Assembly (NCBI GenBank): GCA_963789715.1
Contig: CAWBLQ010000012.1
Coordinates: 132,333-196,332 of the forward strand
DNA from: Candidatus Binataceae bacterium
Lineage (GTDB): Bacteria > Desulfobacterota > Binatia > Binatales > Binataceae
DNA length: 64,000 nucleotides
Direction: 5' to 3'
A program made the translations under genes and the position numbers. The notes beneath the pieces are model-generated. The model worked only from the letters and a program-made list of their open reading frames with translations. It searched no databases and had not been told where the DNA came from. Position 1 is the first letter of the stretch; every line of letters starts with the position of its first letter. Below are positions 2,328 through 26,874 of the stretch, one piece after another.

Positions 2328-3218
2328 TCAGGGCGCCAGGGTCTTCTTCATGAAGTAGTGCGTATGCCCCTTCGGATGATCTTCCAGCGTGACGAAGACC
2401 TTGTAGTCAAGCTTTTCGTAAAGCGGGCGCGCCTGGAAATTGAACGTGTCGAGATAGGAGTAGCTGCATCGACGTTCCAGCGCGAGATGCTCGATCGCAG
2501 TCATCAGTTTGGTCGCGTAGCCCTTGCCGCGGATCGCAGTATCGACCCATACGTCAGAAACATAGAGCCATAGACCCCAGGTATTGCCGAGCGCTCCGCC
2601 CAGGATTTCGCCGTCGCCGTTTTGCAGGAAGACATTGGCGGCAGACCACATCTGCGCCGGGAGCCCAATCGCCGCATGGGCGTGTCCGTGGATACCGTCG
2701 TTGACGATCCTTTGCGCCTCGTCGGACGCATAGGGCTGCATCACGAGACTTGCACGATCGTGCAGGTCGCGGCGCTGGGCATCGATTCCAGTAAGGGTCC
2801 GCTTCGCCAGGTAATAGCGGCTATGGCCCTTCACCGGATGGTCCTTGATCTCACCGAATACGCGGTAGCCCAGCTTTTCGTACAAGGGCCGAGCCTCGTA
2901 ACTCGCGGTTTGCAGAGCGGCCGCGATGCATCCTTTGGCGATTGCGTATCGTTCCGCCGCGGCCATCAGTTCGGTCGCGTAGCCGCGCCCGCGCCACACA
3001 GGATCGACCCACAGCGATCGCACGTGCAACCATCCGCCGACGACGTTGCCAAACAGCCCGCCCAAAATCGCGCCGCCCGCATTCTTGATAACAAATCCCA
3101 CGGGATAGAACTCGACGATCCCGGTCGCCGCGGTATTGTGATTGCGCAGCCCTCGTTCGACTACCTCGGTCCAGGCCTTGGGCGCGTGCGGCTCAACAAT
3201 AATACTCAGTTCGCTCAT
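2328..3218 (-). CDS. Tandem-domain GNAT N-acetyltransferase
   Basis: Two similar halves, each with WVD..RG(R/K)GYAT.LM and ARPLYEKL.Y.VF. Start placed at MSELSII. Confidence 0.85.
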   Translation of the reverse strand: MSELSIIVEPHAPKAWTEVVERGLRNHNTAATGIVEFYPVGFVIKNAGGAILGGLFGNVVGGWLHVRSLWVDPVWRGRGYATELMAAAERYAIAKGCIAAALQTASYEARPLYEKLGYRVFGEIKDHPVKGHSRYYLAKRTLTGIDAQRRDLHDRASLVMQPYASDEAQRIVNDGIHGHAHAAIGLPAQMWSAANVFLQNGDGEILGGALGNTWGLWLYVSDVWVDTAIRGKGYATKLMTAIEHLALERRCSYSYLDTFNFQARPLYEKLDYKVFVTLEDHPKGHTHYFMKKTLAP

Positions 3219-3321
3219 AGCCCTCCGGCAACTGTCGTCCAAACCCCCGCCCCCAGGCAAGCCGCAAGCGCCGCACTCGTGTCCTTGTAAGGCGATGCGG
3301 CGCGTGATGCGATCACGCGGC

Positions 3322-4386
3322 ATGGCTATCCTTGAACAGACTGTCGCGTCGATACGGCCGCTCGACTACGAGGCGGCGTGGGCTGCCGACGAACGGCTCA
3401 ACGGACTGACCAAGCCTCCCGGCAGCCTCGGCCATTTGGAAGAACTCGTGCGCCGCTATGCCGCTATCCGGCACGACGAATCGGTAAAATCCGGGCGCGG
3501 CGCAATCGCGGTGTTCGTCGCCGACCATGGCGTCGCGGCCGAGAGCGTCAGCGCATTTCCACAGGCCGTCACGGCCGAGATGCTTCGCAACATCGCGGCA
3601 GGCGGCGCCGCGATCAGCGTGCTCGCGCGCCGCTTCGGCTATTCGCTCAAGGTCGTCGATGTGGGCGTCAAGGTTGATACCAGCAGCATCCCGCTCGCGG
3701 GTGTGACTTACCGGCGGATAGGAGCAGGCACGCGCAATTTCCTGGACGGCCCCGCGATGACACCTGACGAGACGACGCGCGCGCTCGAAGCCGGAATCGA
3801 GATCGCCCGCGAGCTCGCGGGCGGCGGCGCGACGTTGATCGGAATCGGCGAGATGGGAATCGCGAACAGCACGTCCGCCGCGGCGATCCTGTGTGCGCTG
3901 ACCGCAATCGCGCCCGACTCGATGGTCGGGCGCGGGACGGGGCTCGACGACGCGGGCGTCCGCCGCAAGACGGAAGTCGTCGCGCGAGGGCTCGAGATAC
4001 ATCGCGCAGCGATGGCCTCGGGCGAAGCGACGCTGGCAGCGCTGGGCGGGTTCGAGATGGCCGCGATGGCCGGCGCGTGCCTGGGCGGCGCCGCGTCAAA
4101 CGTCCCGGTCGTGGTTGATGGCTTTATCGCGACGGCGGCGGCGGCGGTCGCGGAGAAGATTCATCCCGGCCTGTTCGACCATCTTTTTTTCAGCCATCGA
4201 TCGGCCGAAGGCGGCCACGCGCTCGCGCTCGAGCACTTCAAGCTGCGTCCGATTCTCGACCTCGATCTCAGACTCGGCGAGGGCACCGGCGCCGCGCTCG
4301 CGATGAACGTAATCGAATGCGCGCTCGGCCTGCTGCACAACATGGCGACGTTCGCGGGCGCCGGCGTGTCCGGCAAGGTGCGATGA
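3322..4386 (+). CDS. cobT: Nicotinate-nucleotide--dimethylbenzimidazole phosphoribosyltransferase
   Basis: LTKPPGSLGHLE, ADHGV, GEMGIANSTSAAA, VVDGFI, LRLGEGTGA. Confidence 0.95.
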   Translation: MAILEQTVASIRPLDYEAAWAADERLNGLTKPPGSLGHLEELVRRYAAIRHDESVKSGRGAIAVFVADHGVAAESVSAFPQAVTAEMLRNIAAGGAAISVLARRFGYSLKVVDVGVKVDTSSIPLAGVTYRRIGAGTRNFLDGPAMTPDETTRALEAGIEIARELAGGGATLIGIGEMGIANSTSAAAILCALTAIAPDSMVGRGTGLDDAGVRRKTEVVARGLEIHRAAMASGEATLAALGGFEMAAMAGACLGGAASNVPVVVDGFIATAAAAVAEKIHPGLFDHLFFSHRSAEGGHALALEHFKLRPILDLDLRLGEGTGAALAMNVIECALGLLHNMATFAGAGVSGKVR

Positions 4387-5153
4387 GCGACGACGCGGGC
4401 GCGCCGGGCGGCGGTTTTCTGACCGAACTGCGGCTGGCTGTAAGCTTCCTCACGATCCTGCCGGTGATCGATCAGCGGCGCGCCTCAGAGGAGACCGTCG
4501 CGGCTTCGTTCGCATGGTTCCCGATTGTCGGTTTCGCCGTCGGCGCGATGCTATGTGTCGAGGATTGGTTGCTGGCTCACGTTTTTGCGCAGGTGGTTCG
4601 CTCGGTTCTTATCATCGTCTCTCTCACCGTCGTCACCGGCGCGGTCCATCTCGACGGACTGGCCGACACGGCTGATGCGCTCGGCGCGGGCCGCGATCGC
4701 GATCGCGCGCTCGACATTCTGCGCGACAGCCGGGTCGGGACATTCGGCGCGAGCGCAATCTTCTTCGACCTGACGTTGAAAATCCTCGCGCTGTCGACGC
4801 TCGCGGGTCATCGCCGATACGCTGCGCTAATCGTCGCGCCGATGCTGGCGCGCTGGGCGATGGTACTGCTCTCCTCAGGCCTACCCTATCTGCGCGCCCA
4901 AGGCTCAGGATCGACGCTCCTCGCGGGAAAGAAGTTCGGTCATAGCGCGGGTATCGTCACCGTTTTCACACTCGTCATTTGGTGGACGCTTGGCGCGATG
5001 CGCCCGATAGCGCTCGCCGTCGCGGTTGCACTCGCGATCGTGGCAGCGATGCGACTCTTCTACCGGCGATGGCTGGGAGGAGTTACGGGCGATTTGATCG
5101 GCGCGTGCGGCGAACTGGTCGAGATTGCGGTGCTCGTGACGATGGCCTCGTGA
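4383..5153 (+). CDS. cobS: Adenosylcobinamide-GDP ribazoletransferase (cobalamin synthase)
   Basis: FLTILP, TGAVHLDGLADTADAL, ILRDSRVGTFG, GGVTGDLIGA..E; ATGA overlap with cobT. Confidence 0.95.
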   Translation: MSDDAGAPGGGFLTELRLAVSFLTILPVIDQRRASEETVAASFAWFPIVGFAVGAMLCVEDWLLAHVFAQVVRSVLIIVSLTVVTGAVHLDGLADTADALGAGRDRDRALDILRDSRVGTFGASAIFFDLTLKILALSTLAGHRRYAALIVAPMLARWAMVLLSSGLPYLRAQGSGSTLLAGKKFGHSAGIVTVFTLVIWWTLGAMRPIALAVAVALAIVAAMRLFYRRWLGGVTGDLIGACGELVEIAVLVTMAS

Positions 5154-7275: not shown

Positions 7276-7797
7276 TCACCTCAGTTTTAGCGGGTAGCCC
7301 GCGACCATCAGTAGCACCTGATCGGCGACGGCCGCGATTTTTTGATTGGTCCATCCCAGTAGATCGCGGAACTGTCGCGACTCGGCGTGATCGGTCGGCA
7401 CGATTCCCGAGCCAACTTCGTCGGTCACGACGATGCTCGCGAACGGAGCCCGCTTCAGCGTTGCCGCGAGCTTGTCCGCCTCCGCCAGAACGGGGCCGTC
7501 ATCGGCGGCATGAAGCTGCATCAGGTTGGAGATCCACAGCGTCAGGCAATCGAGCACTACGAGGTCTGCGCTTTGGTCGAGTTTCTGGAGTGCGGCGACA
7601 AGCTGGACCGGCTCCTCGACGGTCTGAAAGTCCGGCGGCCGCGTCGTCCGATGGAATTCGATTCGCGCCGTCATTTCACCGTCGAGGGCCTGTCCGGTCG
7701 CGACGAAGAATTTGCGCTTGTACGGGGCCGCAAGCTGCAGTGCCTGCATGCTTTTGCCGCTGCGCGCGCCGCCGGTGATTAGCGTGATCGTGCCCAT
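7276..7797 (-). CDS. cobU: Bifunctional adenosylcobinamide kinase / cobinamide-phosphate guanylyltransferase
   Basis: LITGGARSGKS P-loop, DGEMTARIEFH, VLDCLTLWISN, DEVGSGIVP, FRDLLGWTNQ. Confidence 0.95.
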   Translation of the reverse strand: MGTITLITGGARSGKSMQALQLAAPYKRKFFVATGQALDGEMTARIEFHRTTRPPDFQTVEEPVQLVAALQKLDQSADLVVLDCLTLWISNLMQLHAADDGPVLAEADKLAATLKRAPFASIVVTDEVGSGIVPTDHAESRQFRDLLGWTNQKIAAVADQVLLMVAGYPLKLR

Positions 7798-7862
7798 GCG
7801 AATTATCAAGCGTACACGTTAGCGTCGCGCGTGACGAAGGTTTCGCGCGGCTGGAACGCGGG

Positions 7863-8177: not shown

Positions 8178-10259
8178 ATGCGGTCTTTCAATTTGATCCT
8201 GTCGGCGATAGTTGCGACAGCGCTTGGTGGGTCGATCGCGCGCGCGGAAGCGCCCGCCTCCGCGCCGTCGCAAGCGCAAACTCAGGGCCGGAAGTCTTCG
8301 CCGGCAAAGAAGAAAGCCCATCAGCAAGCGACACAGTCGGGCAAGCAGGAGGCGCAGCGGCTGAGTCCGGTGGTCGTTACCGCGACGCGAATCCCGCAGC
8401 CAATCGGCGAGATCGGTACGACGATCACGGTAGTCGAGGATCCTGAAATCCAGGAGCAGAAGATCCAGCGCGTCGCGGACGTGCTGCGGCAAGTGCCGGG
8501 CGTGCAGGTCACCCAAAGCGGATCGCCCGGCTCGGTGACCGACGTGTCTATTCGCGGCGCGACGCCGTCGCAGACGCTGGTGCTCGTCGATGGAGTCGAA
8601 GTCAACGCGGGCGCGACCGGCAGCTTCGACCTTGGCAACCTGACGACGGACAATTTAGATCGCGTCGAGATTTTGCGCGGCGCGGGCGGTTCGCTATACG
8701 GATCGCAAGCGATTGGCGGGGTCGTCAACGTGCTGTCGCAGGAGGGCGAGGGTCCGCCGACGGCGAGCCTGCTTTCCGGGGGCGGCAATCGCGCGAGCAG
8801 CCAGCAGGTCGCGAATGTGAGCGGCGCCGCGGGAAATCTCGGCTACTCGGGCGCGGTGTCGTACTTCTCGACTGACGGGTATCGGCCGGTCAACGACAAC
8901 TCCGACGACCTGGCGCTCAACGGGCGGCTCGATTATCACCTCGGCGACGACACCGTGATTCGCGGCTTTGCGCGTTATATCGCGTCGAACGTGAGCCTGC
9001 CCAACTTCCTGGTGTTCGACGGCGTGCCGCTCGATCGTACGGCGCATCAGCGCAACGAGTTCATGCTGTACAAAGGCGAAGTCGAGCATCACTTCGGCGA
9101 CAAGCTGCTCGCGCGGGCGAGCGCGTCGTTCGTGCGGCAGGACCTGCGGGTGAACGCGCCTCCGTTTCCAGGCGGCATCGTATTCGGCGTGCCCTACTTC
9201 GAGACGGATTCGATTCCGGAGGAGACGCGCGGCGGGAACGCGGAGGCGATCTACACGTGGGCGCCCGGCTTCCGCACGCTGGCGGGCTTCGATTCTCTGG
9301 ATCGCTGGCTGCGCACGGACAGCTCGTGCAGTTTTTGCGATCCAATTCCGCCGTTCGCGGCCGGGGTGAGCAAATTCCACGCGCGGCGCCAGGAGTACGC
9401 CGGCTACGTCGAGCAGGAGGGCAGTTTTGTAAACGGTCACGTGCTGGTCACCGGCGGATTTCGCGTCGATGGCAACAGCCAGTTCGGCGAGGAGGTCAGC
9501 CCGGCGTGGTCGATTGCGATTCCGATCACAAAAATCTCGACAACGTTGCGCGGCAGCTACACTGAAGGCTTTCGCGCGCCGGCATTCAACGAGCTATACT
9601 TCCCGGACTTCGGCAATCCGAATCTGAAGCCGGAGATTTCGAGCGAGTACGACGGCGGATTCACGACCAACTTCGGCGAGCGCGCGTCTTTCACCGCGAC
9701 CTACTTCTCGCGCCGGGTGAAGAACCTGGTCGTCACCGTGCCGTGCAAGACGTGTGTCTTCGGATCGGAAGCGGGCAACGCGTCGCGGGTGGATGTGCAA
9801 GGCGTCGAGATCGTGCCGAGTGTCACGCTCGCCAAGGGACTGACCTTCAGCGGCAACGTGACGGTGCTGGACGAGACCCACGTGGACGATCAACCTGGGA
9901 CAGCGGCGGCGCCGGCGCCCGCGCCGCTGCGGGTGGCGAAGCATACGGCGTCGGCGCTGCTGCAATACGTGCGGGGCGGGAATTTTCTGGCGCATGATAA
10001 AATCACGGCAAGCGTGAATTACATCTTCGTCGGCGACCGCGACGACATCACGATACAATCCACGGTCGCGAATCACTCGGCGTACAACCTGGTCAACGCG
10101 GTGGTGTCGTACGCGATTGGAATCCCGCTACGCCAGGTGCGCAACGAGGAGGTTTTCGCGCGCGTGAACAACCTGATGGATCGCGACTACTCGCAGGCGT
10201 TCGGCTTCAAGGCGCCGACGATTAACGTGCTGGCGGGAGTGCAGCTGGATTTCGAGTAG
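8178..10259 (+). CDS. btuB: TonB-dependent vitamin B12 receptor
   Basis: Signal peptide, VVVTATR TonB box, plug motif RVEILRG.GGSLYGSQAIGGVVN, GFRAP.FNELY; downstream of the B12 riboswitch. Confidence 0.88.
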   Translation: MRSFNLILSAIVATALGGSIARAEAPASAPSQAQTQGRKSSPAKKKAHQQATQSGKQEAQRLSPVVVTATRIPQPIGEIGTTITVVEDPEIQEQKIQRVADVLRQVPGVQVTQSGSPGSVTDVSIRGATPSQTLVLVDGVEVNAGATGSFDLGNLTTDNLDRVEILRGAGGSLYGSQAIGGVVNVLSQEGEGPPTASLLSGGGNRASSQQVANVSGAAGNLGYSGAVSYFSTDGYRPVNDNSDDLALNGRLDYHLGDDTVIRGFARYIASNVSLPNFLVFDGVPLDRTAHQRNEFMLYKGEVEHHFGDKLLARASASFVRQDLRVNAPPFPGGIVFGVPYFETDSIPEETRGGNAEAIYTWAPGFRTLAGFDSLDRWLRTDSSCSFCDPIPPFAAGVSKFHARRQEYAGYVEQEGSFVNGHVLVTGGFRVDGNSQFGEEVSPAWSIAIPITKISTTLRGSYTEGFRAPAFNELYFPDFGNPNLKPEISSEYDGGFTTNFGERASFTATYFSRRVKNLVVTVPCKTCVFGSEAGNASRVDVQGVEIVPSVTLAKGLTFSGNVTVLDETHVDDQPGTAAAPAPAPLRVAKHTASALLQYVRGGNFLAHDKITASVNYIFVGDRDDITIQSTVANHSAYNLVNAVVSYAIGIPLRQVRNEEVFARVNNLMDRDYSQAFGFKAPTINVLAGVQLDFE

Positions 10260-19501: not shown

Positions 19502-20630
19502 TCAGGCTTCGCCGAGGGCGGCGCGAATCGAGCTATGGAAATGATCGAGCGCGTTCTCGTAGCGCCCGTAAACCACTTTTCTGATCGCGCCGGACTCGAA
19601 GCCGTGCTGAATCCCCTCGCCCAGCGTAAAATCCTGGTCGACCACGCCGAGCAGCAGATCCATCGTGCGCGACCATTTCGGCGACGGCTCGGGCGCCAGG
19701 ATGCTGATCGCAACGGCGCTCTCGCCAACGTGCGCGCCGGCCGGAAAGATGCGGTAGATCTCAGCGTGATCGGATTGCATCACGAGGATGGTGTTGGGAA
19801 ACAGGTTCATCAGGATGGTCGCGTGCGCAATCAGATCCCACTTCTCTTCGGGAAGATCGCGCAGCTTCTCGATCGACTTGCGCACGCCGATGTAGCGGGT
19901 GTTGCGCCCGAACGCGTCGAACATCGCGAGATTCTTCACGAACAGCGGGCCCACATTTCGCGCGTGCAGCACCTTTATGTGGTACGCCTCCCAAAATGTG
20001 TCGCTGACCAGCTTCCAGTTCATCCGGCGGCGGACGACGCGCGTTTCCTGATGCGCAAAACGAGCCGATGCCGTATGATTCGATGTCCTGGCCGAGCCCG
20101 GCCAGCATCGCGTCGATGTCGATCGCGTCGCCCGGCGCCGGCGTCACGAAGATGAGGCCGTACTTCTCGGCGACCGGCAGCGGGACCAGGCCGCTCGCCG
20201 TGCGATCGAGTCCTTCGAATCCGTAGTCGTCGGGAATCGCGACGAGGCGCCCGTCGGTGTCGTAGCTCCAGCCGTGATAGGGGCATGAAAACAGCTTCGC
20301 CACGCGGCCGCATCCGGCGGCGAGCTGCGCGCCGCGATGGCGGCAGACGTTGACGAAGGCGCGGAGCTGGCCGGAGGTATTTCGCACGATCAGGATTGGC
20401 ACGGGGGCGAGATCCTCGGCCAGGTAGTCGCCGGGATTCGGAATCTGCGAGCTGAAGCCGGCGACGATCGGATGATGGCGAAACAGCACCTCGCGTTCGC
20501 GGGCGGCGCGCTCAGGCGAGGTGTAGGCGGAGGTGTCGTTGCGGGTGAATCGATCGGCGATCGGGGGCATGCCGCGATCGATGGCGTCGAAGATCTGGTG
20601 AATGAGCTGGACCTGGGTTGAATGCTTCAT
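19502..20630 (-). pseudogene. Rieske non-heme iron ring-hydroxylating oxygenase alpha subunit, frameshifted (possibly a sequencing error)
   Basis: NVCRHRG and CPYHGW in ORF 19761..20630; NWK...EAYH...H in ORF 19502..20023. Removing one A from the run at 20057-20060 joins the frames. Confidence 0.85.
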
Positions 20631-20773
20631 AGTTCGAGCTGGAGATTAGCAGGCGTGCGGGAAAAGTCGCGAGCCGCGAGTGGGGTGTCTCGATCGCTTG
20701 ACACATCCGGTTGTCTAGCGGCAGGCTCGATCGGCGGATAAGACCGGCGCCAATATTCGGGCCGGACGGTCTG

Positions 20774-21109
20774 ATGGGATTGAGGGTTCACAAATTCGGC
20801 AGAGCAGCGGCGCGCGCAATCGCGATTTTCGGCGCAGTGCTGTTGCTCGTGTCGCAGACCGTAGGCGCGGCACATTTTCATGAGGTTGCGGGTTCGCGCG
20901 ACGGCGTCGCAAGCGCCGCGCTCAGCGCCGACCCGGGATTTTGTCCGGTTTGTCAATTGGCGTTGCATTCGCCGGGCTCGGTCGCCGCCACGGTGACCGT
21001 CGCATGGGCGCCAGCGACGGCAGGGACGATATTCCTGGCCGCGCGAGTCCGGTCCGAGTCGCCGGTGTTCTCGGCGGCGCGCGTGCGTGCTCCGCCCGCA
21101 TCGAGCTAA
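20774..21109 (+). CDS. DUF2946/CruR-like leader protein with CxxC and C-terminal RAPP arrest motif
   Basis: Hydrophobic N-terminus, HFH, CPVCQLALH, C-terminal RVRAPPASS; directly upstream of a TonB-dependent receptor. Confidence 0.8.
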   Translation: MGLRVHKFGRAAARAIAIFGAVLLLVSQTVGAAHFHEVAGSRDGVASAALSADPGFCPVCQLALHSPGSVAATVTVAWAPATAGTIFLAARVRSESPVFSAARVRAPPASS

Positions 21110-21218
21110 GCCCCCTTTTTCGACAATCGAACTTGTTTTGGCGCACGTGACCGTTTCGCGCGACGCCACTCGCGTCTGAAGGGCGCGGGCGAAACATTCA
21201 GAGTTATGGGAGCTTACG

Positions 21219-23630
21219 ATGCGACGGAATTTTATTGCCGGGGTCTCGATTGCCGGGATCCTGATTCAACTGGCTATTTGCATGCCGGCGGTGGCGGCTG
21301 AACTGAAGACCACGACGACCACGAAATATCGAGTCACGGGCGTGGTGAAAGACGCGCTCGGCAGACCGCTCAAGCAAGCGGCGCTGTCTCTGCAGGCGTC
21401 GAGCGGGCGGGTGGTGGCTCATTCGACGAGCAACGACGAGGGAGAATTTTCGTTCAACGCGATCGCGCGCGGCACTTATGCGGTGGTGGCGAGCAAAGGC
21501 GGGTTCAAGACGGCGACGGCGATCGTGACGGTCTCGGCGAAGGGCGCTGCGCCGATGGTGCTCGCGATGGAAGCGGAGAAGGAAGTCAGCCTGAAGGTCG
21601 CGGCGACGCGGCTGAACCAGGCGCGCAACTCGCTGTCGCCGAACACCGGTGGCAGCAAGTACACGTTCACCCAGCAGGCGATCCAGGAGCTGCCGCAGGG
21701 CGCGAATACGCCTCTGAACCAGGTGATACTACAGGCGCCGGGCGTCGCGCAGGACTCGTATGGGCAGCTCCACGTGCGCGGAGACCATGCCAATCTTCAG
21801 TACCGCGTAAATGGGGTCCAGCTTCCCGAAGGCATAACCGGGTTTGGACAGGTGCTCAGTCCGCGCTTCGCACAATCGATCAGCCTGCTGACGGGTGCGC
21901 TGCCGGCAGAATACGGCCTGCGCACGGCCGGGGTAATCGACATCAAGACCAAGGATGGGCTGCTCGACCCGGTCGCCGACGTGGATTTTTACGGCGGGCA
22001 GCGCGGGACGACTGAGCCGAGCTTTGAGTACGGCGGGTCGAAGGGCAACTTCAGCTATTTCATGACGGGGCAGTACCTGGGCACCGATCGCGGAGTCGAG
22101 CCGCCGACGTCAGGACCCACGGCGATTCACGACACCAGCAACCAGGGCGCCGGCTTCGGATACTTCTCGTACTTTCTGAATTCGACGACGCGGCTGAGCC
22201 TGATCACGGGAACCGCGATCAATCACTTTCAGATTCCCGCGAACCCGAATCAGCCCCAGATTTTCGAGCTGGCAGGGGTGCCGGTCTATCCGTCGGCGAA
22301 AGTCCGCGAGAACCAGTCCGAGCAAAACTATTTCGGCGTGCTGGCGCTGCAGGGCGTCATTGGAGAAAATGTCGACTACCAGATCGCGCCGTTCAGCCGA
22401 TACTCGGCGGTTACTTTCAATCCCGACCACGTGGGCGACCTGATTTATGATGGCGCCGCGGCGAGAGTTTTTCGCAGCGACTGGGGCAACGGTTTTCAGC
22501 TCGACACTGCTTATCACGGGATTGCCAATCATACATTTCGCCTCGGCGGGTATTTCGACGCGGAGCGCGCCGAGATCGACAATCACGAGTCGACCTTCAA
22601 GGCCTTCCCCGATGGCACCCAGATGCCTCCTTTCGTACCGATCTCGTTCGTTGACGATGTCGCGCTGCAGACCTGGATTTACAGCGGCTATATGCAGGAC
22701 GAATGGAAGCTGTCGGAGAAACTCACGTTTAACTATGGCGTCCGCTTCGACTTGTACGACGGCCTGGTGCGAGCAGATCAGGCCAGTCCCCGCGCTGCGG
22801 CGGAGTACAAGCTGTTCAAGGGCACCACGCTGCACGCCGGCTACTCGCGCCAGATGACGCCTCCGGAGACCGAGCTGGTGCTGATCAGCGATATCAAGCA
22901 GCTCGAGGGCACGACAGGAGCGCCTCCGTCGAAAGGCAACGGCACTCCGACGGTCGAGCGCGACCATCTATTTGACGCGGGAGTGACGCAAGAGATCATG
23001 TCCGGACTGAACGTCGGGATCGATTCGTACTACAAGAAGGCGGCGGACCTGATCGACGAAGGGCAGTTCGGGCCGGCGCTGATCTTCGAAACGTTCAACT
23101 ACCGCAAGGGGCGCGTTTGGGGAGTCGAGTTCACGGGCTCGTACTCTCATGAAAATATCTACGCGTATGAGAACTTCGCCTATAGCGTCGCGCAGGGCAC
23201 GCAGGTGGAGTCGGGGCAATTCAACTTCGCGCCGGACGAACTGCGGTACATCAATAGTCATTATATCTTTCTGGATCACGACCAGACGTTCACCAACTCC
23301 GCCGGGGCGGTATACAACTGGCGTGGCTGGATGTTCAGCATCGACGGGATTTACGGCAGCGGGCTGAGGAGCGGGTTCGCTAACACGGGAAACCTGCCAT
23401 TCTATATCCAGGTCGATGCCGGCATCACCAAGCGCGTGCCGGTACCCAACAATGGCGGGGTGCTCGAGTTTCGCGGCGCGATCGTGAATCTGAACGACCG
23501 CACTTACCTGGTTCGAAACGGCACCGGGATCGGCGTGTTTGCCGATCAATTCGGGCCTCGCCGGGCGTTGTACGGCGGGATAAAATGGGAACTTCCATTT
23601 ACAAAACCCGCGAGCGTGCAGGCGCCATGA
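21219..23630 (+). CDS. TonB-dependent receptor with N-terminal carboxypeptidase-regulatory-like domain
   Basis: Signal peptide, GVVKD..G.PL, plug motifs APGVAQDSYGQLHVRGDH and GALPAEYG.RTAGVIDI, barrel motifs. Confidence 0.9.
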   Translation: MRRNFIAGVSIAGILIQLAICMPAVAAELKTTTTTKYRVTGVVKDALGRPLKQAALSLQASSGRVVAHSTSNDEGEFSFNAIARGTYAVVASKGGFKTATAIVTVSAKGAAPMVLAMEAEKEVSLKVAATRLNQARNSLSPNTGGSKYTFTQQAIQELPQGANTPLNQVILQAPGVAQDSYGQLHVRGDHANLQYRVNGVQLPEGITGFGQVLSPRFAQSISLLTGALPAEYGLRTAGVIDIKTKDGLLDPVADVDFYGGQRGTTEPSFEYGGSKGNFSYFMTGQYLGTDRGVEPPTSGPTAIHDTSNQGAGFGYFSYFLNSTTRLSLITGTAINHFQIPANPNQPQIFELAGVPVYPSAKVRENQSEQNYFGVLALQGVIGENVDYQIAPFSRYSAVTFNPDHVGDLIYDGAAARVFRSDWGNGFQLDTAYHGIANHTFRLGGYFDAERAEIDNHESTFKAFPDGTQMPPFVPISFVDDVALQTWIYSGYMQDEWKLSEKLTFNYGVRFDLYDGLVRADQASPRAAAEYKLFKGTTLHAGYSRQMTPPETELVLISDIKQLEGTTGAPPSKGNGTPTVERDHLFDAGVTQEIMSGLNVGIDSYYKKAADLIDEGQFGPALIFETFNYRKGRVWGVEFTGSYSHENIYAYENFAYSVAQGTQVESGQFNFAPDELRYINSHYIFLDHDQTFTNSAGAVYNWRGWMFSIDGIYGSGLRSGFANTGNLPFYIQVDAGITKRVPVPNNGGVLEFRGAIVNLNDRTYLVRNGTGIGVFADQFGPRRALYGGIKWELPFTKPASVQAP

Positions 23631-23675
23631 AACGCAACTCGGCGCCGGGCGTCAGATCGTAAGGAGAACTGATTA

Positions 23676-24347
23676 ATGCAGGAGCTAGGAGTAGCGTGGA
23701 ACGCGATCAGGTACGGCGGCGCGATGGTGTATCCGCTGCTGGGGCTGGGCGTCCTCGCAATTGCGATAATTATCGACCGAAGCGTGCTCTATGCGCGATG
23801 CCTGCGGCTGCCGTCGACAGTCGCCGAACTGGTCGAGACGTTCGGATTTTCGTGGGCCGAACTCGAAAAGCAATTGCACAAACTCGGGCCGCGCAACGCG
23901 TATGGACGCTTCCTTCAAGTGATCGCCGACAATCGCAACAAGCCCGCATGGTGGGTCGAATCGAGGGCGGGCGACGAGGCCGGTCGAATTGAGAAGACGC
24001 TCACGCGCGGACTGTGGGTGCTCGAGACGATTGTGACGGGGGCGCCGCTGCTGGGCCTGCTCGGCACTATCACGGGCATGATGCAATCGTTCAACGTGAT
24101 CGGAGCGTCAACCCTGGTTGCGCCGACGCAAGTAACGGCGGGCGTGGCGCAGGCGCTGATTGCGACGGCGCTCGGTCTGCTGATCGCGGTGATCTCACTG
24201 TTCGCGTTCAACCTGTTTTCGCGGATGCAAACGCACGCGCTCGACGTGATGGAGCGGCTGGGCTCGCGGCTGGTCGATCACATACGGCTCGACCAGGAAG
24301 GCGGCAACGAGTCGGCGGTTGAGCGGCGTCAGGCGGTGGCGCGATGA
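23676..24347 (+). CDS. exbB: MotA/TolQ/ExbB proton channel protein
   Basis: APLLGLLGTITGMM.SF, GVAQALIATALGL. Confidence 0.88.
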   Translation: MQELGVAWNAIRYGGAMVYPLLGLGVLAIAIIIDRSVLYARCLRLPSTVAELVETFGFSWAELEKQLHKLGPRNAYGRFLQVIADNRNKPAWWVESRAGDEAGRIEKTLTRGLWVLETIVTGAPLLGLLGTITGMMQSFNVIGASTLVAPTQVTAGVAQALIATALGLLIAVISLFAFNLFSRMQTHALDVMERLGSRLVDHIRLDQEGGNESAVERRQAVAR

Positions 24348-24372
24348 GCGCACTGGGCGGCGCGGAAATGCG

Positions 24373-24774
24373 ATGAAGTTGCAAAGAGCGCGCCATTTTC
24401 GTCACGGGCGAATCGAAATCATCCCGATGATCGACGTGATGTTCTTTCTGCTGGTGACGTTCATGCTGGCGTCGCTGTCGATGCAGACTCTCAACTCGAT
24501 CACGGTCAATCTGCCCAAGGGCGACGCCGAGTCGCTGGAGCATCGCGAGCCGATCACCCTGACGGTCACGCACGACAATCACATCTTCGTCGACAAGACC
24601 CCGACCACGCTCGAGCAACTGGCGTTCGTGCTCAAGCCGCTGCTCAAGGCGAATGACCTAGGCGTAGTGGTCAACGCCGACGGCGATGCGGCCGAAGGCA
24701 CGGTAGTGCAGGCGATGATCCAGGCGCGGCGCGCGGGCGTCGAGCATTTTCTGATTGCGGTGAAGCGTCAATAA
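24373..24774 (+). CDS. exbD: Biopolymer transporter ExbD
   Basis: IEIIPMIDVMFFLLVTFM, VNLPK, NAD. Confidence 0.9.
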   Translation: MKLQRARHFRHGRIEIIPMIDVMFFLLVTFMLASLSMQTLNSITVNLPKGDAESLEHREPITLTVTHDNHIFVDKTPTTLEQLAFVLKPLLKANDLGVVVNADGDAAEGTVVQAMIQARRAGVEHFLIAVKRQ

Positions 24775-25517
24775 TGACCGATGCGGCGCGCATCCTTATT
24801 CGTTTGCCGGAGTTGGACGAACCGGCGCGGCGCCTGCTGTGGATCATCCCGGCAGCGATCGCGATCTGGACGATCCTGCTGAGCGGGTTTTCGCTCATTT
24901 TGATGCGCACCAAGGCGCCGCCGGCGGAGCTGAAGCCGATCGATGCGCGGCTGATCGAGATACCGCCGGACGTCGGCGGTCTGCAGGGCAACGGCGGCGC
25001 GGTCCATCCGGCGGCGCCGGCGATTCCTCATCCAAAGGCCGCACCCATCGTCAGACCTCATCCGGTGATTCACGTGAAGAAGGTCGCGCCGCTGCCGCCG
25101 GTGATTCGCTCTCCCTACGGCACCGAAAAGTCGACGGCGGCTCCGGGCGTCGAGGAGACACCTGGCGCGAGCTCGGGGAGCGCGGCTGAGAGCGGCGCGA
25201 GCGGGGGTTCGGAGACGGGCGAAGGATCGGGCGGCGGGATCGGCAGCGATACGGTGGGCGCGCGGGCGATTTACGCGCCGACGCCGGTGATACCGGACGA
25301 TCTTCGCGAGGATGTGATTCAGACCGAGGCCGTCGCGCGCTTCAACGTGTCGTTCGACGGCACCAGCGTGGTCACGCTGGAACAGCCGACCTCGAGTCCG
25401 CGCCTGAACCAGGTGCTGCTCGACACGCTCAAGCAGTGGAAGTTTTTCCCGGCGGTGAAGAACGGCGTCGCGATTGTGTCGTCGTTCGAAGTTCGAATAC
25501 CTATTTCAGTTCAGTAA
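24774..25517 (+). CDS. tonB: Energy transducer TonB
   Basis: N-terminal TM segment, Pro-rich linker, C-terminal domain ..LKQWKFFPA.KNG. Confidence 0.82.
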   Translation: MTDAARILIRLPELDEPARRLLWIIPAAIAIWTILLSGFSLILMRTKAPPAELKPIDARLIEIPPDVGGLQGNGGAVHPAAPAIPHPKAAPIVRPHPVIHVKKVAPLPPVIRSPYGTEKSTAAPGVEETPGASSGSAAESGASGGSETGEGSGGGIGSDTVGARAIYAPTPVIPDDLREDVIQTEAVARFNVSFDGTSVVTLEQPTSSPRLNQVLLDTLKQWKFFPAVKNGVAIVSSFEVRIPISVQ

Positions 25518-25518
25518 A

Positions 25519-26706
25519 TCACGCGGCGCAGCACAGGCGTTCGATCACCTTGTGAATCATCGCAGGGCCGCGTTCGAAGGCGTCGCGGCGGACGTGCTCG
25601 TTGGGCTGATGCGCCTGATCGAGATCGCCGGGGCCGCAGATGAGCGAGGTGATGCCCGCGCCGGTGAACCATCCGCCGTCGGTGGCATAGAGCGCGCCGC
25701 CAGAGGTGTTCGCGCCGGTGACGGCGAACAGCGCGGCTTCCAGAGCCGACCCGCGCGGCGAGTCGAGCGGCGGCACGACGTTCAGCAGCGCGATTTCGAT
25801 TTTCGCGCGATGCTCGCGGCCGGCATAGTCGAGGCCGTCGAGCGCGTCGAGCCGGCGCTCGATCTCACGGTAAACGTCGAGCGGATCGGCGTCGGGCAGC
25901 GCGCGATAGCTGGTGCGCAGCCTGCATTCCTCGGCGATCATGTTGAGCGCGATTCCGCCGCGCACCGTCCCGAAATTCAGCACGTCGTGCGGCGCGTCGG
26001 GAAAAATCTCGGCATATTCGGCGGGCCGGCGCGCGGCGAGCTCCTGCTGATAGCGGCCGATGGTGTCGATGACGCGGGCCATCACGGCAATCGCGTTGAC
26101 GCCCCGGGCCGGTGCGCCGCTATGGCCGCCGATGCCGCGGACGGTTACGCCGAACGAAACGATGCTCTTGTGCGCGTGAGACACTCCCCACGAAGTCGGC
26201 TCGCCGATCCACGCCAGGCGAGGGACGGGAGTGTCGCTCAGGATTTGTTCGAGCGCCGGCGCGACGCTATGAGCGCCGAGACACCCGACTTCCTCGCTCG
26301 CGGTGAAGACAAAGACCAGCGGCCGCTTGAGCCGGGCCGAATCGAGGGTGCGCGCCGCGTCGAGGCATTGCGCGATGAACCCTTTCATGTCGGTGGTGCC
26401 GCGGCCGTAGATTCGCTCGCCGGCGACTTCGAGCTTGAGCGGCGCGCGGTCCCATCCGGGCTGTCCGTCGAAGGGGACGGTGTCGACGTGTCCGGAAATT
26501 ATCAGGCCGTCGGCGCGCGGCGGTCCAAGCCATGCTACCAGGTTGGTCTGCGCGACTCCGAGCAGCTCGACCGGTTGGAGCGCGGTTTTGAATCCCCGCG
26601 GCGCGAGCTCGCCCGCAATATATTCCATCGCGTCTCGGTCGCTTTTCGCGCTGACCGTGTCGAACGCGACCAGCCGGCTTGCGACGTCATACAAATAATC
26701 AACCAT
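25519..26706 (-). CDS. argE: M20 family metallopeptidase, acetylornithine deacetylase-like
   Basis: SGHVDTVP, YGRGTTDMKGF, EEVGCLG, IGEPT, GPGDLDQAHQPNE. Confidence 0.8.
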   Translation of the reverse strand: MVDYLYDVASRLVAFDTVSAKSDRDAMEYIAGELAPRGFKTALQPVELLGVAQTNLVAWLGPPRADGLIISGHVDTVPFDGQPGWDRAPLKLEVAGERIYGRGTTDMKGFIAQCLDAARTLDSARLKRPLVFVFTASEEVGCLGAHSVAPALEQILSDTPVPRLAWIGEPTSWGVSHAHKSIVSFGVTVRGIGGHSGAPARGVNAIAVMARVIDTIGRYQQELAARRPAEYAEIFPDAPHDVLNFGTVRGGIALNMIAEECRLRTSYRALPDADPLDVYREIERRLDALDGLDYAGREHRAKIEIALLNVVPPLDSPRGSALEAALFAVTGANTSGGALYATDGGWFTGAGITSLICGPGDLDQAHQPNEHVRRDAFERGPAMIHKVIERLCCAA

Positions 26707-26874
26707 GATGGCACCGGGGCAGGAACTTCGGTCTGGAGAATCGCACAATTGACCGGTCGATAACAAATCGATGTCTTATAACATGGCGGAAATACTCGTG
26801 TATCGATGATTGTGGTGCAAGGATAGGCAATGGACCTCGCGGACGGCTAGAATGCGTGGCCAGGATGGGGGCGG

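Follow-up and report, generated by a model that had tools for sequence, protein, structure and literature searches.

The window analysed here, that is the whole 64-kb stretch of DNA, comes from the genome (95% complete) of an uncultured bacterium of the Candidatus Binatus/Binataceae and carries, from position 20774 onward, a small open reading frame (ORF) of 111 amino acids (aa) followed on the same strand by the gene of a TonB-dependent receptor (TBDR) and by exbB, exbD and a divergent tonB. An earlier note, made from the sequence of the window, had read this ORF as a leader peptide that senses a metal, arrests its own ribosome and gates the whole TonB uptake operon. The features of the leader and of the genes that it precedes are the following:

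20774..21109 (+): leader ORF, 111 aa, ATG at 20774 and TAA stop at 21107-21109; a divergent relative of DUF2946/CruR
20774..20872 (+): export signal, residues 1-33, basic and then hydrophobic, ending G-A-A, with a predicted signal-peptidase I site directly before H34
20873..20881 (+): H34-F-H36 (HxH), invariant in 54/54 and in 72/72 aligned sequences; predicted mature residues 1-3
20942..20968 (+): C57-P-V-C60...H65, a CPxCxxxxH metal-ligand motif recognised by its conservation in alignments; CPVC is at 20942-20953
21086..21097 (+): R105-A-P-P108, candidate arrest motif recognised by its sequence, with 44 residues between CPVC and the motif and three codons between the motif and the stop
21219..23630 (+): TBDR, 803 aa, with an N-terminal CarboxypepD_reg domain (Pfam: barrel E 3.4e-19, CarboxypepD_reg E 3.5e-15)
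23676..24347 (+): exbB (PF01618, E 2.4e-25)
24373..24774 (+): exbD (PF02472, E 5.7e-25); the ATG start is taken here, a TTG at 24319 is also open
24774..25517 (+): divergent tonB, under the cut-off in both models (TonB_C 18.4 vs 24.6 bits, tonB_Cterm 25.9 vs 27.1 bits)

The coordinates of the ORF and of its motifs agree with what had been described before (a hydrophobic N-terminus, HFH, CPVC..H and RAPP three codons before the stop), and the distance between CPVC and RAPP, previously put at about 45 residues, is exactly 44; the tail between RAPP and the TAA stop is A-S-S. The receptor begins after a spacer of 109 nucleotides (nt; 21110-21218), as reported earlier, and both the Pfam and NCBIfam scans and the conserved gene order agree with the succession TBDR-exbB-exbD-tonB. 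The Plug domain of the receptor scores below the Pfam threshold (20.4 vs 23.9 bits), and the exbD stop overlaps the tonB start (TAATG).

The prototype of the DUF2946 family (PF11162) is CruR (Bp2923) of Bordetella pertussis, in which, according to Roy et al. 2022 (PMC9426467), a CXXC motif is followed by 45 residues and by RAPP three from the end, and for which the TonB transporter BfrG was shown to be controlled in dependence on copper and on Rho; the same report counts more than 2000 homologues, mostly proteobacterial, heading operons with genes for TonB-dependent transporters and PepSY_TM proteins. The DUF2946 profile, suggested earlier as a check, matches the leader with E 3.4e-4 and in register from the metal motif to RAPP (residues 33-108, profile positions 32-117 of 117), but its 21.8 bits remain under the gathering score of 23.7 bits. 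The likeness to CruR stands, whereas the term 'analogous' used in the earlier note does not: judged by this in-register alignment, the leader is a homologue of the CruR family, belonging to a divergent sister subfamily that the Pfam model mostly misses, and not a Pfam-threshold member.

The extent of this subfamily can be seen from the searches started with the leader. A word-indexed search gave 128 homologues at E<=0.01, of which those with a named source are mostly from Candidatus Binatus and none carries a precomputed Pfam domain. In the alignment of 54 of the 120 listed homologues, H34, F35, H36, C57, P58, C60, A63, H65, S100, R103 and R105-A-P-P108 are invariant, and 20 of the 54 clade members match DUF2946 at E<=0.01. 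A profile search of 1.84 billion cluster representatives yielded 124 matches at E<=0.001; among the 123 examined, 112 end in CxxC and, after a spacer, R-x-P-P with a short tail. In 105 of these 112 representatives the spacer measures exactly 44 residues and in the others 42-45; RAPP is the form of the motif in 104, and the tail has three residues in 84. The Pfam cut-off is reached by 7, with 22 more matching below it and 83 without any match at E<=0.01. Even in a wide alignment of 72 sequences H34, H36, C57, C60, R105, P107 and P108 are invariant, and Q28, H65 and A106 are conserved in at least 90%. The relation to DUF2946 is also visible at NCBI, where P0125, a relative with 47% identity, bears the name 'DUF2946 family protein [Candidatus Binataceae bacterium]', and in the ESM Atlas, where the nearest cluster is from Binatota and without Pfam family and the second is a DUF2946 cluster (score 0.96). 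Beyond the class Binatia, the Atlas gives a hint of Pseudomonadota and Armatimonadota only.

The same data bear on whether the ORF is a gene at all. Long spurious ORFs are common at a GC content of 62%, and a 180-aa antisense ORF (20627-21169) overlaps the leader; against a chance ORF stand the 128 homologues, the invariance of the motifs while the codons vary, and a promoter and a synteny conserved across loci (see below), and the conservation data rule this explanation out.

In a scan of one genome per species 34 loci were found, all but one in Binatus, Binataceae or 'delta proteobacterium' metagenome-assembled genomes (MAGs), and the window itself belongs to Candidatus Binatus/Binataceae, the 'different lineage' of the earlier note. 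The arrangement CxxC, 44 residues, RAPP, three residues and stop is present in the window and at 33 of the 34 loci, L035 lying outside the search pattern. RAPP, whose absence from orthologues would have spoken against the earlier reading, is conserved both here and in all 54 aligned homologues. Downstream of the leader the receptor gene occurs at 33 of the 34 loci, exbB at 31, exbD at 29, tonB at 30, and all four at 28; among the incomplete sets, L021 and L029 are cut by the contig end, exbD is missing at L007 and L016, and L024 and L031 are without most of the genes. Identity to the window is 56-77% for the leader and mostly 75-90% for the receptor, and this faster divergence of the leader fits a constraint on its motifs only. 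As judged from these sequences, the recurrence of motif, spacing and gene order is more than chance. In a sample of the class the leader is found in 31 of 151 genomes; within the family of the window itself it is present in 16 of 17 other sampled genomes, and an even sample of the phylum gives 3 of 201 genomes. These tallies include one unpublished genome (G282), on which alone no claim rests.

Twenty-nine further loci (L041-L069) keep the 44-residue spacing exactly in 27 cases. Downstream of these leaders, 11 loci have a receptor whose N-terminus, judged by eye, is like that of the window, 8 have a protein that is about 450-480 aa long and carries a coiled coil at its N-terminus, and 8 are of unclear type. 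The loci with the 450-480-aa protein (L043, L045, L057, L061, L063, L065, L067 and L069) retain the 44-residue ruler; the six proteins that were scanned with Pfam gave two sub-threshold porin matches only (Porin_O_P 16.7 bits, BBP2 16.8 bits), and they may represent a further type of outer-membrane channel controlled in the same way. A different situation is found at L024:5932-6480, where the MAG that also contains L014 has a second copy of the leader, in which the spacer and the first receptor codons are kept and no receptor ORF follows. The ORFs downstream look, by eye, like an undecaprenyl-diphosphatase and an ABC transporter, and the opposite strand encodes cupredoxin-like and two Sco-like (CPGPC) proteins; this copy is probably the remnant of a duplicated switch.

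The similarity with CruR goes beyond the profile match. Both are small first genes with a signal peptide, CxxC, a fixed spacer and RAPP three residues before the stop, and both are followed by a long structured intergenic region and then by a TonB-dependent transporter; the logic of an uptake system shut off by its own metal would, by analogy, also be shared. Unlike CruR, the leader has 111 instead of 145 aa and 44 instead of 45 residues in the spacer, its Pfam match is sub-threshold, and it shows an invariant HxH at the predicted mature N-terminus and H65, where the CruR family has only a semi-conserved Cys. Furthermore, the host belongs to Binatia rather than Proteobacteria, and exbB-exbD-tonB take the place of the PepSY_TM protein as partners of the receptor. 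A C-terminal RAPP in a small exported or membrane protein upstream of a regulated gene is also found in the RAPP/RGPP arrest peptides ApdA and ApdP and in SecM-type monitors (PMC10951233, PMC7897499, PMC12992588), which monitor Sec/YidC and regulate localisation genes; the leader differs from them in its Cys/His ligand set and in its TonB uptake operon, and downstream of it lie TBDR, exbB, exbD and tonB instead of the secA, secDF or yidC by which ApdA/ApdP are recognised.

This comparison is relevant to a reading in which the peptide is mainly a functional exported product, for instance a periplasmic metal-binding partner or chaperone of the receptor with a RAPP devoid of regulatory role, or else a monitor of Sec export rather than a metal sensor. 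The conserved export signal and the set of five Cys/His ligands would suit an exported product, and RAPP peptides that monitor Sec/YidC do exist (PMC10987492, PMC7897499); the exact 44-residue ruler, the position of RAPP three codons from the stop, the place of the gene at the head of the operon and the long structured spacer are instead hallmarks of a regulatory family, the residues between the motifs are poorly conserved (35% mean column identity in the wide family), and the downstream genes are not Sec or YidC genes. We regard this reading as very unlikely in both its forms.

Conservation extends to the DNA and RNA on both sides of the leader, where the following elements are predicted:

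20698..20727 (+): sigma-70-type promoter, -35 TTGACA at 20698-20703, 18-nt spacer, -10 CAGGCT at 20722-20727, recognised by conservation across loci
21091..21115 (+): 5' strand of a long-range helix, from the Pro107 codon through the tail codons and the stop to GCCCCC, complementary to the receptor Shine-Dalgarno (SD) sequence and AUG; minimum free energy (MFE) fold
21110..21138 (+): conserved tract after the stop, C-rich, G-poor in relatives and predicted mostly unpaired, GCCCCC..CGACA.ATCCGATT; candidate Rho-loading (rut) tract
21139..21168 and 21169..21189 (+): two adjacent GC hairpins (RNAalifold, 24 loci)
21208..21228 (+): 3' strand of the helix, with SD GGGAG (21208-21212), AUG (21219-21221) and the first receptor codons; MFE fold

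In the alignment of the upstream regions of 31 loci TTGACA is invariant and GGCAGGCTCGAT nearly so, which points to a promoter upstream of the leader; a generic promoter and terminator scan found no sigma-70 promoter in the leader or the spacer, and it also missed the predicted promoter, because the -10 of the latter is weak. At five loci (L005, L015, L018, L027 and L028) the about 40 nt between the predicted -10 and the leader ATG (window 20728-20773) are missing, so that the ATG follows the -10 by a few bases and the leader mRNAs may be leaderless. An imperfect inverted repeat, TGACA-N8-TGTCT, overlaps the -35 box (window 20699-20716); its right arm, TGTCA in many relatives, is only partly conserved, and the repeat could be the operator of an additional transcriptional regulator.

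The 109-nt spacer is highly conserved across related loci and starts with GCCCCCTTTTTC, that is G-CCCCC-TTTTT-C: the run of C and T quoted in the earlier note is present, with five T and not six. The GC hairpin region that had been placed before the receptor SD consists of the two adjacent hairpins ahead of GGGAG, which are paired in 97% and 98% of the alignment cells at 24 loci, with compensatory changes in two pairs. In the MFE fold of the window both hairpins are closed by a long-range helix of 19 base pairs (bp) in four segments (4, 7, 5 and 3 bp), which joins the last codons of the leader to the receptor initiation region and leaves the receptor AUG with a probability of being unpaired of 0.01 when no ribosome is stalled. 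The two halves of this helix are 81% and 91.5% paired at 24 loci, in comparison with 30-63% after a shift of the 3' partner by 1-3 columns. When the loci are folded singly, 23 of 24 pair at least 10 bases of the initiation region with the last 42 nt of the leader. In a 511-nt context including the whole leader, at least 10 initiation-region bases pair with the leader end in 23/33 cases, as against 7/33 with the leader end shuffled, and complete pairing of the AUG with the leader end is seen in 18/33, as against 2/33. The tail codons are, in addition, the most uniform of the gene (GTA 0.91, TCG 0.96, CTC 1.0 and TAA 0.97 among the sequences with the majority amino acid). At the level of the sequences, the potential of the leader end to pair with the receptor initiation region is conserved. 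A search of Rfam with 20600-21300 found no known RNA family, apart from a lone sub-threshold match to CRISPR-DR20 attributable to chance. The CGACA.ATCCGATT tract (window 21119-21138; aligned columns L003-L036) is conserved though predicted unpaired and is explained neither by the helix nor by the hairpins; a role as rut site or as binding site is conceivable.

On the motifs, their exact spacing, the DUF2946 homology, the synteny and the pairing potential we base an interpretation that we consider moderately probable, and that supports the reading of the earlier note: the leader would be a CruR-type regulatory switch, in which an exported metal-binding nascent peptide arrests at RAPP and gates TBDR-exbB-exbD-tonB. 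Arrest of CruR has been demonstrated in vitro, with a toeprint according to which the two Pro codons occupy the P and the A site, in a study which also describes RAPP/RGPP upstream ORFs with signal peptides before TonB-dependent receptors as widespread in Gram-negative bacteria (PMC12992588). By the same scheme, the ribosome would stall here with its P site occupied by Pro107 and its A site by Pro108; at this point the 44-residue spacer would fill the exit tunnel and the ligand set H34, H36, C57, C60 and H65 would have just emerged. The stalled ribosome would cover part of the 21091-21115 strand, keeping the receptor SD and AUG (21208-21228) open, and may in addition shield the C-rich tract after the stop from Rho; in both cases expression of TBDR-exbB-exbD-tonB would follow. 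Binding of the metal to the emerged domain would induce its folding and a pull on the chain, the arrest would be released and the ribosome would terminate; the helix would then re-form, or Rho would terminate transcription, and uptake would be shut off. The arrest, the metal, the polarity of the response and the relative shares of ribosome-binding site (RBS) masking and Rho are what we infer in this scheme, as is the control of the whole operon by the leader.

Several points weigh against this interpretation. The Pfam score of the leader lies under the gathering cut-off, as said above. Only 3 of the 19 pairs of the long-range helix show a compensatory change, among sequences that are close relatives, and the structure used in the 24-locus pairing test came from the window's own fold. 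A stall footprint of -12/+15 raises the probability of being unpaired only partly for the AUG (from 0.01 to 0.35) and barely for the SD (from 0.33 to 0.38). With the leader end shuffled, the initiation region of this GC-rich RNA is still largely paired in the prediction (13-22 of its 24 nt). In a shuffle test of duplex energy at 15 loci the pairing is significant (p<=0.01) only in the window, L059 and L057 and marginal in L046, and it is not significant in the other 11; moreover, some of the pairing comes free and needs no selection, because the Pro-Pro codons (CCN CCN) resemble an anti-SD sequence. Finally, no gene within the window points to copper or to any particular metal, and the receptor fits no copper-receptor model.

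That the stall is predicted to have only a small thermodynamic effect on the SD also argues for a CruR-type leader whose control is essentially transcriptional: the stall would block Rho, its release would give Rho access to the C-rich tract and cause termination ahead of the receptor gene, and the long-range helix would be incidental. Typical rut regions are longer than about 30 nt, and the C-rich tract (21110-21138), to which a rut function can be assigned by analogy with CruR, has about 30 nt only. The tract is, on the other hand, conserved, G-poor and mostly unpaired directly after the stop, the genome encodes Rho (701.6 bits), neither GC hairpin is followed by a U-run, the generic scan reported no terminator-like site in the spacer, and Rho-dependent termination is the mechanism demonstrated for CruR (PMC9426467). 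What argues against Rho as the only agent is that the pairing between the leader end and the initiation region is specific in comparison with shuffles and kept across loci; besides, Rho and RBS masking are not mutually exclusive. A purely transcriptional switch appears unlikely to us.

For the CruR-type switch with RBS masking, a partial precedent exists in CutF of Rhodobacter capsulatus, a DUF2946-like exported nascent metal sensor, for which a 2025 preprint (10.1101/2025.02.05.636593) proposes that stalling at a proline motif melts a stem-loop shielding the RBS of cutO. The leader differs from CutF in having CxxC and RAPP before an uptake system, instead of CxxxC and PPP before a copper-induced detoxifying multicopper oxidase, and in that its shielding strand is formed by its own last codons and not by a separate stem-loop; a helix between the leader end and the receptor RBS is also absent from the published CruR model.

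CutF further suggests the opposite polarity. In that branch control is described as metal-on and dependent on the signal peptide (10.1101/2025.02.05.636593; PMC9973294), and here, too, the ligand domain could be exported, with Sec pulling or disulfide formation normally freeing the stall and the metal preventing release, so that the operon would be on in the presence of metal. The export signal is pertinent to this alternative. A hydrophobic 12-mer lies upstream of HxH in 107 of 110 family representatives, and of the residues before HxH position -1 is A, S or G in 93/110 and position -3 is A, G or S in 103/110; by this heuristic, which consists of hydropathy and the -1/-3 rule only, an AxA-type signal-peptidase site is predicted directly before HxH, giving a mature peptide that starts H-x-H. 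Its conservation suggests that the ligands act after export. Induction by excess metal, however, makes little physiological sense for genes that form an uptake system, and the motif is RAPP with the CruR spacing, not the CxxxC and PPP of CutF; we consider the opposite polarity improbable, and repression by the bound metal remains the polarity we adopt.

The metal would be copper by the precedent of the family. Sites formed by an amino-terminal X-X-His or by an N-terminal His prefer Cu(II) or Ni(II), and H-x-H resembles an amino-terminal Cu/Ni site or a histidine brace. It is possible, although we put it forward as a doubtful proposal, that the leaders form a distinct Binatia-centred subfamily in which the cleavage-exposed H-x-H together with CPxCxxxxH senses periplasmic Cu(II)/Ni(II) on the nascent chain, and in which the arrest-site and tail codons are at the same time the anti-SD/anti-AUG strand. 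CutF-like proteins have been sorted into 29 clusters with Cys, His or mixed sites, not all members being copper-specific, and TonB-like proteins are among the frequent neighbours of their genes (Öztürk et al. 2023, PMC9973294); the present subfamily may lie within one of these clusters. The main text of that study uses none of the terms ATCUN, 'histidine brace' and HXH, and 'Binat', 'ExbB' and 'ExbD' are absent from the supplement texts of PMC9426467 and PMC9973294, figures and non-text tables being outside the scope of this comparison.

The leader extends a known mechanism and is no new kind of mechanism: TonB receptors preceded by RAPP upstream ORFs and, in the CutF branch, stems that shield the RBS have already been described in the reports cited above. 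What is particular here is a subfamily largely invisible to Pfam, with H-x-H, CPxCxxxxH and an exact spacer of 44, a host in Binatia, the attached exbB-exbD-tonB, and a predicted masking strand made of arrest-site codons. CruR/CutF-type metal-sensing arrest leaders would thus reach an uncultured soil and peat lineage, and a large sister subfamily escapes the Pfam model on which the published surveys relied. If the proposal is true, one stretch of about 25 nt is both the end of the arrest peptide and an RNA switch; such an overlap of the arrest site with the masking strand of the next gene would be a compact design, in which RBS unmasking and Rho are separable by synonymous recoding. The switch would then gate the only TonB receptor of the genome besides the riboswitch-controlled cobalamin one, plus a private energiser.

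This last point follows from the genome context. Only two receptor barrels are detectable with PF00593 in the genome. The second one (window 8178-10256, +) lies behind a cobalamin riboswitch (RF00174, 7887-8047, +, 102 bits), and both adjoin cobT/cobS/cobU-type genes (3142-5150 and 7279-7809); judging from position, one of the two receptors is under a riboswitch and the other under a peptide leader. The genome has four ExbD-family genes and three TonB_C matches, and the exbB-exbD-tonB set is plausibly private to the leader-headed receptor, because the other receptor barrel is the riboswitch-controlled cobalamin one. As for the substrate of the leader-headed receptor, NCBIfam returned neither an OprC-type or other named receptor model nor any equivalog-level match, and the best sequence matches in the PDB, to YncD and PqqU, reach E ~8e-4 only; a substrate is therefore not inferable. 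A search of the genome for the AMO family, as a sign of copper demand, gave no match, and since its control gave none either, this result carries no weight.

Two peat metatranscriptome runs of one study contain contigs identical to 20774-20975 and 20924-21110, which together span the leader ORF almost exactly. The ends of such contigs do not mark those of transcripts, and the RNA libraries may contain DNA; the missing cover of the receptor is not to be read as attenuation.

Downstream, a convergent gene for an M20/M28-type metallopeptidase (window 25519-26766, -) abuts tonB and ends the operon unit; its position is kept at 28 of the 34 loci, perhaps through mere relatedness. On the other side, upstream and divergent from the leader, a Rieske oxygenase gene (window 19502-20630, -) is apparently split: the ORF 19761-20630 comprises the Rieske domain and a low-complexity tail that looks out of frame, and the C-terminal catalytic part seems to be encoded by a second ORF (19502-20023), which overlaps the first in a different frame, an arrangement that could derive from a frameshift or an assembly error.

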